Part shown: piece after piece, positions 63 through 4,056 of the stretch | Layout: every line of letters begins with the position of its first letter | How positions within the stretch are numbered: the first letter of the stretch is position 1 | Source of the DNA: an uncultured Fastidiosipila sp. | GTDB taxonomy: Bacteria; Bacillota; Clostridia; Saccharofermentanales; Fastidiosipilaceae | DNA: 32,000 bases | Assembly (NCBI GenBank): GCA_964479695.1 | Contig: CAYZSO010000003.1 | Coordinates: 60,567-92,566, forward strand | Direction: 5' to 3' | The notes under the pieces: model-generated | Told to the model about the DNA's origin: nothing | The model's input: only the letters and a program-made list of their open reading frames with translations | The model's database searches: none | Translations under genes and position numbers: made by a program

Positions 63-171
63 ACTTGTAACAATAAGTGGCTGTATGCGTTCCTACCTAA
101 GGAGTGGGACAAAAAATATTGCCGCACTTCTAGCAATAAGCGGAACGATGCGTTCCTTCCACGTTAGTTGG
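63..171. repeat. two 46-nt imperfect direct repeats (63-108 and 126-171)
   Basis: Position-by-position alignment gives 32/46 identical. Shared blocks are ACTT..CAATAAG..GG and ATGCGTTCC. The second copy contains the perfect hairpin GGAACG-atg-CGTTCC. Confidence 0.5.
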
Positions 172-210
172 ATGAAGGGGTGAAGGGATGAAGGGATGAA
201 GGGATAATCA
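171..210. repeat. octamer tandem repeat GATGAAGG x4 plus a degenerate fifth unit
   Basis: gatgaagg ggtgaagg gatgaagg gatgaagg gataatca, read directly. Confidence 0.85.
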
Positions 211-230
211 GATGTGATCTACACAGCTGT

Positions 231-327
231 GATGTGATGTGATGTGATGTGATGTGATCTGATCTGATCTGATCTGATCTGGTCTGATCTGGTCTGGTCT
301 GGCTGGTCTGGCTGGTCTGGCTGGTCT
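231..327. repeat. graded microsatellite: GATGT x5, GATCT x5, GGTCT/GATCT x4, then GGCTGGTCT x3
   Basis: Fourteen contiguous pentamers at 231-300 whose consensus changes stepwise, followed by three 9-mers at 301-327. Confidence 0.9.
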
Positions 328-474: not shown

Positions 475-476
475 AA
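457..476 (+). repeat. attL-type direct repeat (tRNA 3' end), ATCCCACGCTCTCCGCCAAA
   Basis: An identical 20-mer is found again at 2213-2232. Confidence 0.85.
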
Positions 477-480
477 ACAA

Positions 481-515
481 AGCCCAGAAACTCAACGTTT
501 CCGGGCTTTTTCATT
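481..515 (+). terminator. rho-independent terminator after tRNA-Ser
   Basis: Stem AGCCCAGAAAC (481-491) pairs with GTTTCCGGGCT (497-507) with one mismatch, followed by a T run. Confidence 0.6.
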
Positions 516-541
516 TTTACTTGTTGCACTTTTGTTGCACT

Positions 542-1056
542 TTATGAAATGATCTTAGTAAAAAGTTTGTTTATTGCATCTCCTGTTTCGATGTGGTCAT
601 CATCAAGCGCGTGAATATAAACTCCTGTATCCATGCCTTCCGAATGGCCTAGCGTTAGCTTTAATTGCTCCGTAGTGGGTGCAGACTTCGCAAGGCTGGC
701 AAAGTATGACGCAGACGATAAGGCGTGATATCCGTCATATTGTTTTTGAGGCAGTAGCGATGCAAACGTACGCGACACCAGTAGTGATTGATCGGCGTTC
801 CGTCTCGTTGCTCGAAGACGTAAGGCGAAAGAACGTCGCATTGCTTGCGCTATTCTCTGGCGCGTGCAAGGATGTCTTCTGCTAGCGGGATTATGCATTC
901 CGTTCTGATTGCGTTCTTGTTTTTGCCGCCTGTGATCTGGCCTCTGTCGTTGTATGCTTGATTGATATTAATTTGCGACTCTGTAATATCTTCCCAGCGT
1001 AGACCGTAGACTTCACCGGGACGGAAACCGTAAAGCAAAATAAATTGCCATGCCAT
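542..1056 (-). pseudogene. tyrosine recombinase/integrase, 5'-truncated and frameshifted
   Basis: Two overlapping frames (850-1056 and 542-898). Box I is present (FRPGEVYGLRWEDI), as is the C-terminal LGHSEGMDTGVYIH tyrosine motif. The HxLR arginine appears lost (HALS). No N-terminal domain is present. Confidence 0.8.
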
Positions 1057-1190
1057 GATGTTCGGATCAATACTCTTGTCGATTAAAAGTATTTTTACTT
1101 CAGACTATTGTAAGATATTCTTTTCTTTAACTTCTAGTCCTGTAGGAATCTCCAAGGTGTCAGGCCGCCAATGATAGAGAAACACCTGAG

Positions 1191-1601
1191 TCATTTATTG
1201 GACTTTGTTTGCACGTTGTAATCGATTTGTGCTTTCATTCGCTGAAAGATATTCAAGTGATTAATTTCATCGCGAAACTTTTCATAATATGGTTCAAGTA
1301 AATTGTTTGCCGATTTTCGATTAATGCCGGTATTTGCGCATATCAATGACGCGGCGCTGAATTTACTTTTCCCGCACATGCGTATAATTAAATTTAAGTC
1401 AAAATACGCTTTGCCGACTAGCATGTAATTAACGTCGTAAATACTATCAATTAAATCTATTGGCCGCTGGCTTCTCTTTGGATCTGTGACGTATGTGTTG
1501 TTAATCACCATTGTCGTTTTCTCTGTAGGCAACATTGTTCCGCAATACTGGCAAAACCTGTATTTGTCATCAACGTCTGCACCGCAATTTACACATTTCA
1601 T
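1191..1601 (-). CDS. zinc-ribbon domain protein, C-terminal domain unknown
   Basis: N-terminus MKCVNCG..x11..CQYCG (two CxxC pairs). Its ATG overlaps the upstream XRE gene stop in ATGA. Confidence 0.7.
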   Translation of the reverse strand: MKCVNCGADVDDKYRFCQYCGTMLPTEKTTMVINNTYVTDPKRSQRPIDLIDSIYDVNYMLVGKAYFDLNLIIRMCGKSKFSAASLICANTGINRKSANNLLEPYYEKFRDEINHLNIFQRMKAQIDYNVQTKSNK

Positions 1602-2053
1602 TCTTCATTTCCTCCTATTTCGTCTTTTTTCCATTTTTTGATAAGGCTTGCTAACTTTTCGTCTTCTTTGCCTTCGTCCCATACGCTGGAGCTTGCGGCG
1701 TACGGCAAAGGTTCTTCCTCTTCTGTATCTTTATCTTTAACCGCAAGTAAGGCCTCGGTTGTAGTCAAGATTGCGCGTTGTTCTGCTTGCGACAATTTGA
1801 GCATATTTAAAACGACTTGTTTTATTTCAGGCGTTACCTGTAACGTCTTTTCTGAATCAACTCCCATCAGATACGAAGGTGAAACATTCAAGGCGCGTGC
1901 GATTGCACTTATTTTGTCTTGCTTTGGGCTATATTCGTCTCGTAGGTATGCACTGATAGCTGATTGATAGATGCCGGTTTTACTGGCTAGTTCCGATTGC
2001 GACATATTCCTATCTTTAAGTATTTGATCAAGGCGCTTCGAGAATTCAGACAT
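1598..2053 (-). CDS. XRE-family helix-turn-helix transcriptional regulator (151 aa)
   Basis: MSEFSKRLDQILKDRNMSQSELASKTGIYQSAISAYL is a classic Cro/CI HTH. Start moved to the ATG at 2053 because a GGAGG SD lies 7 nt upstream. The track ORF extends to 2131 without an SD. Confidence 0.85.
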   Translation of the reverse strand: MSEFSKRLDQILKDRNMSQSELASKTGIYQSAISAYLRDEYSPKQDKISAIARALNVSPSYLMGVDSEKTLQVTPEIKQVVLNMLKLSQAEQRAILTTTEALLAVKDKDTEEEEPLPYAASSSVWDEGKEDEKLASLIKKWKKDEIGGNEE

Positions 2054-2065
2054 TTTGTACCTCCT

Positions 2066-2190
2066 GAAAACTGTGTAATGCAATTGTAACCGTTGTGAAA
2101 CTTGATGTGAACAGAATTCTGAAAAAATCATTCAAAAAACTGATGACAACAGAAAACTGTTAGTTTAGAATGGAATTTAGAAAACTGATA
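2066..2190. promoter_or_regulatory. repeated GAAAACTG boxes upstream of the XRE gene (candidate operators)
   Basis: Exact GAAAACTG at 2066-2073, 2152-2159 and 2180-2187. Variants: AAAAACTGATG near 2136 and GAAACTTGATG near 2098. Confidence 0.45.
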
Positions 2191-2212
2191 GGAAGGAGTA
2201 CGGCAATGTATG

Positions 2213-2232
2213 ATCCCACGCTCTCCGCCAAA
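2213..2232 (+). repeat. attR-type direct repeat, copy of the tRNA-Ser 3' end
   Basis: ATCCCACGCTCTCCGCCAAA, identical to 457-476. Confidence 0.85.
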
Positions 2233-2243
2233 GTATAGATTAA

Positions 2244-2264
2244 GCCCCGATTCGGGGCTTTTCT
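2244..2264 (+). terminator. rho-independent terminator (probably the original tRNA-Ser terminator)
   Basis: GCCCCG-att-CGGGGC followed by TTTTCTTG, immediately after the attR repeat. Confidence 0.65.
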
Positions 2265-2439: not shown

Positions 2440-2514
2440 TTTCCTTTAACAAGGAAATTGGATATAATTGCCTTGTAAAAGGAAATAATAAAGAATTTCC
2501 ATAAACAAGGAAAT
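2440..2514. promoter_or_regulatory. two 18-bp palindromic boxes TTTCC-N8-GGAAA flanking a perfect TATAAT
   Basis: TTTCCTTTAACAAGGAAA at 2440-2457 and TTTCCATAAACAAGGAAA at 2496-2513 are 16/18 identical. TATAAT lies at 2463-2468. A third AAGGAAAT half-site is at 2479. Confidence 0.5.
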
Positions 2515-2516
2515 GG

Positions 2517-2659
2517 AAAAACAACACAAAACAACACAAAACAACACAAACCCCAACCCACAACACAACTCAATCACAGCGCCCAAACACAAAGCACCCA
2601 AACCCAAACCCAACCCACAACACAAAACCCACAACACCAACCCACAACCCAAACACCAA
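2517..2659 (+). repeat. C/A-only low-complexity tract (ACAACACAAA x3, then degenerate CCCAA/CACAA units)
   Basis: Only 5 of 143 positions are G or T (2570, 2574, 2579, 2581, 2594). The tract ends 3 nt before the GGGAGG SD of the SatD-like gene. Confidence 0.9.
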
Positions 2660-2675: not shown

Positions 2676-3344
2676 ATGAACTATTTGGCCATCATAGGTG
2701 ACATGATCAAATCCCGCGAGATCAAGAATCGTAAGCAAGAGCAAGAGCGGATAGAAGAAGTCCTCAGTAAAATCAATCAGCAATATCAGGAGATCATAGT
2801 TTCCAGGATCACGTTGACGCTTGGGGATGAATTTCAGGCGCTTCTAAAGATAGACCACCGAGTCATGCAGATGTTGGATGACCTCGAAACTCAATTGGAA
2901 TTGCCCTATAGGTTGGGGATCGGCTTTGGCCAAATTCGGACGAAGATCAGACCGGAAATCAGTATCGGAGCCGATGGGGAGGCCTTCTGGCACGCGAGGG
3001 AAGCGATTGAGAATATCCATGAGAACGATTGGGGTGGCTATGCCAAAGTCCGGTTTATGGGACTGGGGGAATTGCAGGACCAAACGATCAACGCACTCTT
3101 TCGCACGACTGATACAATAAAACAGAGTTGGACGACGACGAGGAGGGAAACGTTTGCGGAACTTCTGGCGCAAGGGATTTACAGCGTGACCTTTGACCAG
3201 AAGCGTTTTGCGGAATCAATCGGAATCTCTCAGAGTAGTTTGAGTAAGAGGCTTTCCGGTGGGGCGATCAAGATTTATTTGGACGCCCGCCAAACCATAG
3301 GTGAATTATTGGAGGCTTGGTGTGACACAACTGTCGACTCTTAG
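2676..3344 (+). CDS. SatD-family protein: N-terminal cyclase-like region with C-terminal HTH-like region
   Basis: Strong SD GGGAGG. N-terminus AIIGDMIKSRE and LTLGDEFQALL resemble the SatD family of the Streptococcus mutans sat operon. The C-terminus (FAESIGISQSSLSKRL) looks like an HTH. Confidence 0.75.
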   Translation: MNYLAIIGDMIKSREIKNRKQEQERIEEVLSKINQQYQEIIVSRITLTLGDEFQALLKIDHRVMQMLDDLETQLELPYRLGIGFGQIRTKIRPEISIGADGEAFWHAREAIENIHENDWGGYAKVRFMGLGELQDQTINALFRTTDTIKQSWTTTRRETFAELLAQGIYSVTFDQKRFAESIGISQSSLSKRLSGGAIKIYLDARQTIGELLEAWCDTTVDS

Positions 3345-4056
3345 TTTGCTGGTGTTGATCGCTCATTTCCTGGGCGATTACCACTTTCAGAGCGAAAGCA
3401 TGGTGCGGGCGAAACAGCGATCACTGCGAGGACTCCTTCGGCACATAGGTGTTCAGGGGCTTTTGTTGCTGCCACTGCTGCTCTTTGCCGGCATTTCGCG
3501 TGATCTCACTTGGGTCTATTTGGGGTTAACGATTCTTGCCGGCCATTTCGTGCTGGATTTTCTGAAACTTGTTCTTGATCGGCAGAAGCAGAAATCCGCA
3601 GGGCGTTACGAGGCGGTGATTTACGTGATTGATCAAGTCTTGCATGTTACGCTGATTCTTGTTCTGAGTACGTGGGTTTTCCCCGTGTTTCCGCCCGCGT
3701 GGTTGCAGCGGGATTGGCTTACGTGGGGCCTCCTTGCTGTGCTGATTACGAAGCCGGCGAATGTTACGTTCAAAATTCTTTTTCGCAAGTACCGCTTCTT
3801 CGAGATCCCGAATCCGCAAAAGGCTGTCAGTGAAACGCAGGCTGGTGCGGGTGCTTTGATCGGCAATTTGGAGCGGCTTTTGTCAGCGATTTTCCTGGGT
3901 ACAGGCCAGGTTGCCGCGATCGGCTTGATCTATACGGCCAAGTCGATTGCCCGCTTCAAGAAGATTGAGGAGAACCAGAGTTTCGCGGAATATTACCTCA
4001 TTGGCACATTGTATAGCATCCTTTATGTTACGGTCTTCTTCTATTTGATCGTTTGA
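3322..4056 (+). CDS. DUF3307-type polytopic membrane protein (usual SatD partner)
   Basis: HFLGDYHFQS motif and several hydrophobic segments. I place the start at GTG 3322, 6 nt after GGAGG (3311-3315), overlapping satD by 23 nt. The track start is 3301. Confidence 0.75.
   Translation: MTQLSTLSLLVLIAHFLGDYHFQSESMVRAKQRSLRGLLRHIGVQGLLLLPLLLFAGISRDLTWVYLGLTILAGHFVLDFLKLVLDRQKQKSAGRYEAVIYVIDQVLHVTLILVLSTWVFPVFPPAWLQRDWLTWGLLAVLITKPANVTFKILFRKYRFFEIPNPQKAVSETQAGAGALIGNLERLLSAIFLGTGQVAAIGLIYTAKSIARFKKIEENQSFAEYYLIGTLYSILYVTVFFYLIV

Follow-up and report, generated by a model that had tools for sequence, protein, structure and literature searches.

In Escherichia coli, 5′ tails made of CA repeats act as ribosome standby sites in a length-dependent manner (Sterk, Romilly and Wagner 2018, PMC5934652). 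These tails are synthetic, they measure at most ~16-20 nt, and they rescue a ribosome-binding site (RBS) that is otherwise sequestered; their activity needs both length and the absence of structure. Translation in E. coli is also enhanced by CA-rich and ACA elements that precede the Shine-Dalgarno (SD) sequence, and GcvB, through its G/U-rich region, targets the C/A-rich enhancers of gltI, dppA and yifK (Yang, Figueroa-Bossi and Bossi 2014, PMC3879156). Enhancers of this type are 10-30 nt long, are conserved in sequence and belong to one regulon that is read by one sRNA. Two further kinds of element invite comparison: the rut sites found in 5′ leaders, for which we used criteria as in RhoTermPredict (PMC6407284), and the 'CA motif' targets of Hfq/Crc in Pseudomonas (PMC5113210), in which AANAANAA lies at or near the RBS.

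Here we analyze an A/C-only tract that precedes a satD-like gene in 32,000 nucleotides of genomic DNA (the window) from an uncultured Fastidiosipila sp. Taken singly, the satD tract belongs to a familiar type, the unstructured C/A-rich leader. What is new is its setting: ~100 tracts that follow a strict orientation rule, in two sister species, in a genome of which 4.4% is tandem repeats, with length alleles within the species. We favor the reading that the satD tract is a transcribed, slippage-derived spacer, either inert or serving for ribosome standby, and give this a probability of roughly 0.6; that the tract is 'transcribed, repeat-derived and hypervariable', which is one part of this reading, appears highly probable.

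An A/C-only tract upstream of satD

The tract occupies positions 2517 to 2659 of the forward strand. A count of its 143 nt gave A76 C62 G3 T2, which bears out the five G/T bases reported in the first-pass annotation; these lie at 2570, 2574, 2579, 2581 and 2594. With an A+C fraction of 0.50 in the window, the binomial probability of finding at most five G/T among the 143 nt is ~4e-35. TRF detected a perfect tandem repeat of AAAACAACAC at 2518-2550 (period 10, 3.3 copies, 100% matches), at the end recorded as promoter-distal, and the units downstream of this repeat are degenerate and of the CCCAA/CACAA type, much as had been described from the letters alone. Three nucleotides (GCA) separate the tract from the SD sequence GGGAGG (2663-2668), again as previously noted, and a further 7 nt separate the SD from the ATG at 2676. 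The gene that begins there (2676-3344, forward strand, 222 aa) matches PF16264 over its full length with an E-value of 4e-65, so that its designation as SatD-like is well founded. Its end is overlapped by a gene on the same strand for a DUF3307 membrane protein (3301-4056), recognized from the ORF list and a domain match. Because the tract is present in three independent assemblies, we rejected an assembly artefact as its source.

Directly upstream of the tract lies a block (2441-2516, forward strand), recognized by its conservation, in which TATAAT (2463-2468), the hexamer singled out in the first-pass annotation, is flanked by TTCC-N-GGAA palindromes. This −10/TTCC-N-GGAA block is kept upstream of satD in the sister species G001 (locus L008), in a third species (locus L093) as well as in another strain of the window species (locus L094); the SatD proteins of G001 and L093 are 73% and 68% identical to that of the window. 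The tract begins 48 nt downstream of the conserved −10. The distance from the −10 box to the satD ATG is 41 nt in L093, 88 nt in G001, 207 nt in the window and ~317 nt in L094, and these differences are explained by the tract, which therefore represents an insertion that separates the operator from the SD. Scanning of 2517-2659 revealed no ATG, GTG or TTG, no stop codon, no GGA, GAG or AGG and no TANNNT. As a promoter-like hexamer is impossible within the tract, the satD promoter should not lie inside it, and the tract would be part of the mRNA whenever this SD-led gene is expressed. We infer that it is transcribed as 5′ UTR from the TATAAT at 2463, and that it makes up most of that UTR; the promoter/operator is probably autoregulated.

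The proposal that such a UTR would be unstructured also agrees with the folding predictions. In the centroid fold of the leader the tract is single-stranded, with a z-score of −0.15 relative to shuffled sequences, and around the SD only weak local pairing is predicted within a diffuse ensemble (MFE frequency 0.0006). Searches of 5 kb with the Rfam 15 covariance models returned nothing on the tract at E ≤ 1. [quoted passage not shown] The satD tract differs in being natural and in its length of 143-253 nt. It may also differ at the RBS: sequestration of the satD SD is not predicted, so that a standby site in the strict sense, one that overcomes a structured RBS, is not obviously needed.

Five open reading frames cross the tract. 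Four of these are on the minus strand (2333-2566, 2367-2573, 2446-2652 and 2574-2783), in line with the four spurious ORFs that had been attributed to the translated complement, and one is on the plus strand (2513-2671). All five are artefactual, since any of the six frames through A/C-only DNA is free of stop codons. The plus-strand ORF has 52 codons and runs from an ATG in an operator half-site to a TGA between the SD and the satD ATG. It is probably not translated: the AAGGAA that adjoins ATG 2513 is part of the conserved operator, and its spacing is improper for an SD.

The surroundings of the locus include a tRNA-Ser(UGA) gene (383-474), into which an element has integrated. The degraded remnant of this element (475-2232, no strand assigned) is strain-specific and is delimited by a repeat of the tRNA 3′ end at ~2211-2232. 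It carries fragments of an integrase together with genes for an XRE regulator and a zinc-ribbon protein. A hairpin search located the tRNA-Ser terminator at 2242-2260 (forward strand), displaced here by the island; in G001 and in L094/L095 the island is absent and the tRNA gene and terminator are contiguous. On the other side of the tRNA gene is an array (171-327) that the first-pass annotation had regarded as a G/T-only strand mirror of the satD tract. This view does not hold: the composition of the array is G57 T49 A31 C20, or 68% G+T, and it is an ordinary graded microsatellite that begins where the upstream ORF ends, at its stop codon.

A gene-oriented family of tracts in the window genome

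The genome from which the window derives (G000) comprises 2.77 Mb in 58 contigs, is 94% complete and has 50% G+C. We scanned it for maximal two-letter segments, scoring +1 for each A/C and −4 for each G/T, with a minimum score of 30. This yielded 50 A/C and 52 G/T tracts on the strand as read, 102 in total; the other two-letter alphabets gave 4 (AG), 5 (CT), 2 (AT) and 1 (CG). A tract was classed as a leader tract if an SD-like motif and a start codon followed within 40 nt and opened an ORF of at least 70 codons. By this definition, 33 tracts have A/C on the sense strand before an SD and start codon and 4, all doubtful, have the opposite orientation (binomial p ~5e-7). In most of the 33, the last base of the tract directly precedes the first G of the SD. 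More broadly, of the 79 intergenic tracts, 60 precede a gene of matching orientation and the other 19 do not. Sixteen tracts were classed within long ORFs, and among the 15 that overlap a called gene and lie well inside it, A/C is on the sense strand in all except one (14/15); these in-ORF A/C tracts are predicted to encode linkers rich in Thr, Pro, Asn, Gln, His and Lys.

This orientation is independent of local GC skew and of the local gene-strand majority; a replication-strand effect was therefore rejected, and the orientation is tied to the individual gene. Nor does it arise from a general A/C bias of leaders, the mean A+C of which is 0.51-0.52. Rather, genes with at least 80% A+C at −60 to −17 form a discrete class of ~2% of genes in both G000 and G001, as opposed to 0% in the congener G004, and the reverse bias (G/T at −60 to −17) is found at 0.1% of genes. 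Tandem arrays whose end lies no more than 45 nt ahead of a start codon give the same picture, with a peak of 28 at a sense A+C of at least 0.9 and none at 0.1 or below. A second class of ~15-20 arrays has a G/T-rich sense strand and starts directly after a stop codon. An example is the array after pyrD (G000 C3:57622), which measures 135 nt here and ~55 nt in L095. Taken together, the two classes place the A/C strand so that, on either flank, its 5′ to 3′ direction points toward the ORF.

Several leader tracts follow recognizable regulatory elements. A −10-like hexamer occurs within 150 nt upstream of 20 of the 33, compared with 30% of random windows. In G004, the terminator of the ileS T-box (read from sequence) lies 8 nt from the SD; in G000, ~310 nt of tandem repeats separate the two, the last part of which is a 73-nt A/C tract. 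The nrdD tract lies downstream of a −10 hexamer and NrdR-box-like repeats, and that of the catalase gene downstream of a PerR-like palindrome, both boxes being named from their sequence. A tie to an AT-rich palindrome present in ~150 copies was considered and rejected, as most copies are kilobases away from any tract. The tracts are also not copies of one mobile or repeated element, for the 20-mers that they have in common are almost exclusively trivial repeat units.

A Pfam scan of 20 downstream genes found them to be functionally unrelated, and a common function was thus discarded. Among the products of the tract-bearing genes are a MoxR ATPase, a GNAT protein, GH3, ABC ATPases, SDRs, a HisZ-like protein, TetR, GntR and MFS proteins, as well as NAD synthase (NadE), catalase, a response regulator, IleRS, CoA-disulfide reductase, NrdD, ComEA and AMMECR1. 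Such a lack of relatedness fits a generic spacer and not a regulon. As these are not typical highly expressed genes, it also argues against selection for maximal translation.

We considered whether the tracts could be platforms for a trans-acting factor, either an A/C-binding chaperone or repressor (the distal face of Hfq, a Crc-like partner, a KH protein) or G/U-rich RNAs. In one variant, the leader tracts would pair with G/U-rich tracts in the 3′ UTRs of G000, in parallel to GcvB and its C/A-rich targets. Hfq is encoded, the satD tract contains 22 ACA triplets and, like the GcvB-type enhancers, is A/C-rich just upstream of the SD; the enterobacterial elements in this position are both enhancers and GcvB targets (PMC3879156), and the ~20 G/T-rich post-stop sense tracts are complementary in alphabet. 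However, the G000 tracts differ from those enhancers in being long, hypervariable and not conserved in sequence among relatives, in preceding functionally unrelated genes, and in belonging to a Clostridia-type lineage without known GcvB. No common motif or register was found among the tracts, only 17 of the 102 are strongly periodic, and Rfam gave no match either on the satD tract or in 20 other tract-bearing loci, nor any to a cognate G/U-rich sRNA in the 5 kb covered. The sole match to AANAANAA in the satD tract is at 2517, 146 nt from the SD and thus far from the position that this motif takes in the Hfq/Crc targets, and congeners that have no tracts encode Hfq just the same. We regard a platform of this kind as unlikely.

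Structure at the level of DNA is still less probable, and to our minds very improbable. Here, G-quadruplexes on the template strand or i-motifs on the C strand would modulate transcription or replication. The satD tract has one (C3N2-3)x4 motif, CCCAAACCCAAACCCAACCC at 2597-2616, found by motif search, whose four C3 runs make a G-quadruplex motif on the template strand, and many more are present in a 253-nt allele described below. Yet only 4 of the 33 leader tracts, and 17 of the 102 tracts overall, contain such a motif, and many tracts are of the CAACA type without C runs, so that it was rejected as the common feature of the family.

Restriction to two sister species

We next compared the occurrence of runs of 40 A/C letters, M{40}. 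G000 has 568 such positions and the sister species G001 has 658, compared with none in three congeners and none in 34 of 36 genomes of the family and order; the other two have 1 and 10. Across the class, runs of 50 letters (M{50}) occur in 7 of 300 genomes, at 4-76 overlapping positions each against 330 in G000; since these counts are of overlapping positions, they correspond to a few tracts at most per class genome. A 400-kb sample of G001 contained 18 tracts, including 5 A/C-sense leaders, and a 397-kb sample of G004 contained zero.

Nine ortholog pairs of G000 and G001 were then inspected. In five to six of the nine, both species have an A/C-rich array that cannot be aligned between them; the genes concerned include those for moxR, a tetR-like regulator, a HisZ-like protein and AMMECR1, and G001 also has (CCAAACG)n at the gene for CoA-disulfide reductase and (AAACAG)n at that for catalase. 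At satD, GH3 and one transporter-like gene, G000 alone of the pair has the tract. The orthologous genes of G004, G002 and G003 have ordinary short spacers, and upstream arrays were found in none of the five readable G004 genes (moxR, ileS, CoA-disulfide reductase, HisZ-like and AMMECR1). Set against the base rate of 2%, the sharing between G000 and G001 indicates that many tracts were inherited from the common ancestor. The alphabet of the tracts has been kept while their sequence turned over.

For satD itself, comparison of tract length in relatives gave 143 nt and 253 nt in two strains of the window species and absence of the tract from the leaders of G001 and L093. Together with the ~100 similar tracts elsewhere, this weakens the case for a device specific to satD. 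As far as these comparisons go, the exact length and sequence of the tract appear unconstrained, and satD appears to need no tract.

These data bear on the possibility that the tracts are positively selected, either as translational enhancers or as Rho-loading sites. In the Rho version, a C-rich, G-poor and ribosome-free leader would serve as a rut site, at which slow initiation at the SD leads to early abortion of transcription; this would couple transcription to translation in ~2% of genes. The satD tract resembles rut sites of 5′ leaders in that at least 78 nt with C in excess of G are unstructured and untranslated. Its best 78-nt window has 38 C and 1 G (C/G = 38) with the C regularly spaced, and so has the sequence features by which rut sites are recognized (PMC6407284). 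Rho is encoded in G000 (PF07497, 107.6 bits, in an open frame of 830 codons), and its N-terminal insertions are longest in the two tract-bearing species, ~810 and 840 aa compared with ~610 aa in G004; this correlation is, however, one of two species versus one. For both versions, the retention of tracts at orthologous genes in G000 and G001 is favorable. On the other hand, the G000 tracts are as A-rich as they are C-rich. In the leader tracts A exceeds C (A 0.53, C 0.42, G 0.027, T 0.023), CC makes up 15% of dinucleotides, and some CAACA-type tracts are almost free of CC. Congeners devoid of tracts have the same conserved Rho core. The post-stop sense tracts, which occupy the place where Rho would be expected to load, are G/T-rich. 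Finally, the length of the satD tract is free and the tract is dispensable in the sister species, which counts against both versions. Positive selection of this kind therefore seems doubtful to us. Hfq and Rho are encoded in all five genus genomes, and the presence of either was rejected as the species difference, with only the length of the Rho insertion varying.

Repeat instability and strain variation

The tracts occur in a genome that is unusually rich in repeats. TRF detected 1567 merged tandem arrays in G000, which cover 122.7 kb or 4.4% of the genome. G000 has 558 arrays per Mb, compared with 258 in G001 and 58 in G004. Loss of mismatch repair was rejected as the cause of repeat instability, as all five genus genomes encode intact MutS and MutL.

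The window was also compared with the L094/L095 strain of its species (ENA ERZ23500641), from which it differs by 2.66% mismatches over 20.7 kb. The satD tract is 143 nt in the window and 253 nt (A126 C117 G5 T5) in L094, where the extra part consists of CCCAAA/CCCACAA units; a third assembly (SRR8379593) has the long type of 3′ end. Of the 12 other indels that span 5 nt or more in the region compared, almost all are within tandem arrays.

Variation of this sort recalls the simple-sequence contingency loci of host-adapted bacteria such as Neisseria, Haemophilus and Campylobacter. The classical examples are pure repeats of mono- to hepta-nucleotide units, located in ORFs or between the −35 and −10 elements, and the length of the repeat sets the reading frame or the promoter spacing. 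The G000 tracts are likewise gene-adjacent repeats whose length differs between strains, and arrays in this species are generally length-polymorphic. If satD were a phase-variable locus, slippage would alter the length of the tract and hence satD expression. For example, ATG 2513 could toggle between the short ORF, whose end lies 4 nt upstream of the satD ATG, and a reading frame continuous with satD that lengthens the N terminus of SatD. Indeed, this ATG is out of frame with satD in the window and in frame in L094, for which a gene of 313 aa has been called; its relation to the satD frame thus depends on the length of the tract. However, the G000 tracts are A/C arrays of mixed units located in the 5′ UTR, and that of satD lies outside the −35/−10 interval and outside the real ORF. 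Its units are heterogeneous, unlike the long pure short repeats of classical switches. ATG 2513 is without a properly spaced SD and abuts an operator motif. The other leader tracts have no consistent upstream start codon or SD at their 5′ ends; for this reason, and because the frame relation at satD depends on the strain, a translated leader peptide was rejected as well. Phase variation is, in our judgment, quite improbable, and the length alleles are readily accommodated by a slippage-derived spacer.

Discussion

These observations provide the basis for a model of how the satD tract, as a repeat-derived extension of the leader between the promoter/operator and the SD, may have arisen and been tolerated. 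The model has two steps. The first is mutational: the lineage would make and keep tandem duplications at an unusual rate. The second is a filter. Near an RBS, G and U would be costly, in that they can supply SD-like or anti-SD-like motifs, start codons and secondary structure. RNA composed only of A and C can neither pair with itself nor contain start or stop codons, and can neither mimic nor mask an SD; it is the sole two-letter alphabet with these properties. A/C arrays could therefore reach hundreds of nucleotides between promoter and SD with expression unharmed. We predict that RNA polymerase passes through the tract and that the 30S subunit still meets an exposed SD, to which a long unstructured 5′ tail may add a standby or landing site for ribosomes. 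The same filter could underlie the sense bias within ORFs, where A/C would give hydrophilic linkers and G/T would give Gly, Val, Leu, Phe, Trp and Cys.

Under this model, it is probably selection that purges G and T from the tracts, and we infer that the effect of a tract on expression is neutral to mildly positive. By analogy with the results for CA tails and CA-rich/ACA elements in E. coli, a mild positive effect is plausible. The dispensability of the tract in the sister species and its free length, in conjunction with the unrelated and not obviously highly expressed genes that bear tracts, argue against a device specific to satD or to a regulon. Two observations are less comfortably placed. 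A filter acting on leaders leaves the ~15-20 G/T-sense post-stop arrays unexplained, and the retention of tracts at the same genes in two species, in spite of the usual deletion bias, could reflect positive selection.

A broader proposal is that both sister species could have a genome-wide post-transcriptional layer, composed of G/U-free leaders at ~2% of genes and of complementary G/U-rich tracts after stop codons, with a lineage-specific reader. The reader may be the extended Rho, another single-strand RNA binder or pairing of 5′ A/C with 3′ G/U tracts, and tract length may then serve as a rapidly evolving tuning knob. We consider this proposal distinctly doubtful, and a transcribed spacer derived by slippage remains our preferred account of the satD tract.

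Several consequences follow at the level of practice. Gene callers run ORFs through the tracts, and the 313-aa 'SatD' recorded for one strain is a warning to annotation. The natural length alleles of 143 and 253 nt are directly usable in reporters, and the tracts offer a comparative handle on the stimulation by CA-rich leaders in E. coli, which is still unexplained. Outside a few contingency loci, bacterial genomes rarely contain long microsatellite-like tracts. In this uncultured anaerobe of free-living type, arrays extend over 4.4% of the DNA and include a clean A/C subclass of ~100 tracts, which amounts to a natural experiment on the sequences that a bacterial 5′ UTR tolerates.

Candidate operator and gene call at satD

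Palindromes of the form TTCC-N-GGAA flank the satD -10 box (window 2441-2516) and are kept in three species. These palindromes are likely to constitute an operator, and it is possibly bound by SatD itself, which carries a helix-turn-helix-like tail at its C-terminus. The public 313-aa SatD call in a second strain of the species (L094 1501-2442, ENA ERZ23500641) is an artefact with its start placed at an ATG internal to the candidate operator, because the gene caller ran the open reading frame through the stop-free A/C tract (window 2517-2659).

Strain differences and tandem arrays

Upstream of satD, window 475-2232 holds the remnant of an element that integrated into tRNA-Ser; a second copy of the tRNA 3′ end lies at ~2211-2232, and the remnant carries an XRE regulator, a zinc-ribbon protein and integrase fragments. 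The element is absent from the second strain (L094/L095) and from the sister species G001, where the tRNA directly adjoins its terminator. The ORF at 10-183 is followed by a graded microsatellite (window 171-327) that starts at its TGA stop codon and runs from GATGAAGG through TGATG/TGATC/TCTGG to CTGGTCTGG. The first-pass annotation described this array as G/T-only, which does not hold, as its composition is 68% G+T; its length differs between strains (86% identity, 33 gaps). A 28-nt tandem duplication, AGTCGCTGTAAAAATACCGACGTAGAAA, was found only in the other strain (L095 9847; window position 2388), and the arrays at window 8386, 9656 and 11083 hold more strain-specific indels.

Across the genome that holds the window (G000), 1567 tandem arrays remained after merging, amounting to 122.7 kb or 4.4% of the genome. 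Their density per Mb is 558, versus 258 in G001 and 58 in the tract-free congener G004. Both MutS and MutL are intact in this repeat-rich genome.

A conserved palindrome and the ileS leader

An AT-rich palindrome of 34-40 nt, gACTACATAAGTTTAwwTTTAAACwTATGTAGTg, is highly conserved at ~150 places in G000, for example immediately upstream of the window (C3:60151-60192) and at C15:12430-12471 and C2:119202-119243; a search with its core gave 201 strand matches versus 30 with a reversed control. Since no U-run follows the palindrome, its sequence looks REP-like rather than terminator-like. In seven cases it borders an A/C tract on the side facing away from the ORF. One copy is found in the ileS leader (C16:12977-13360), where the distance from the T-box terminator to the SD is ~310 nt, versus 8 nt in G004, and the spacer consists of GC-rich tandem repeats, the palindrome and a 73-nt A/C tract.

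Rho and tracts that follow stop codons

The G000 Rho gene (C8:49167-52379) encodes a disordered N-terminal insertion of ~400 aa with an (Asn-Ala)n run; the protein measures ~810 aa in G000, ~840 aa in G001 and ~610 aa in G004.

Directly after pyrD, ~2.8 kb upstream of the window, lies a G/T-rich tract (C3:57622-57753; junction ...TATTAG|GGTTAGTAGTGG) of 135 nt in the window strain versus ~55 nt in L095. Sense-strand G/T-rich tracts directly 3′ of a stop codon occur at ~15-20 other places in G000, including C15:12318-12423 and C19:18829-18879. Taken with the A/C leaders, whose sense-strand A/C tracts abut the SD and start codon, these post-stop tracts yield a rule: the A/C strand points to the ORF from either flank.
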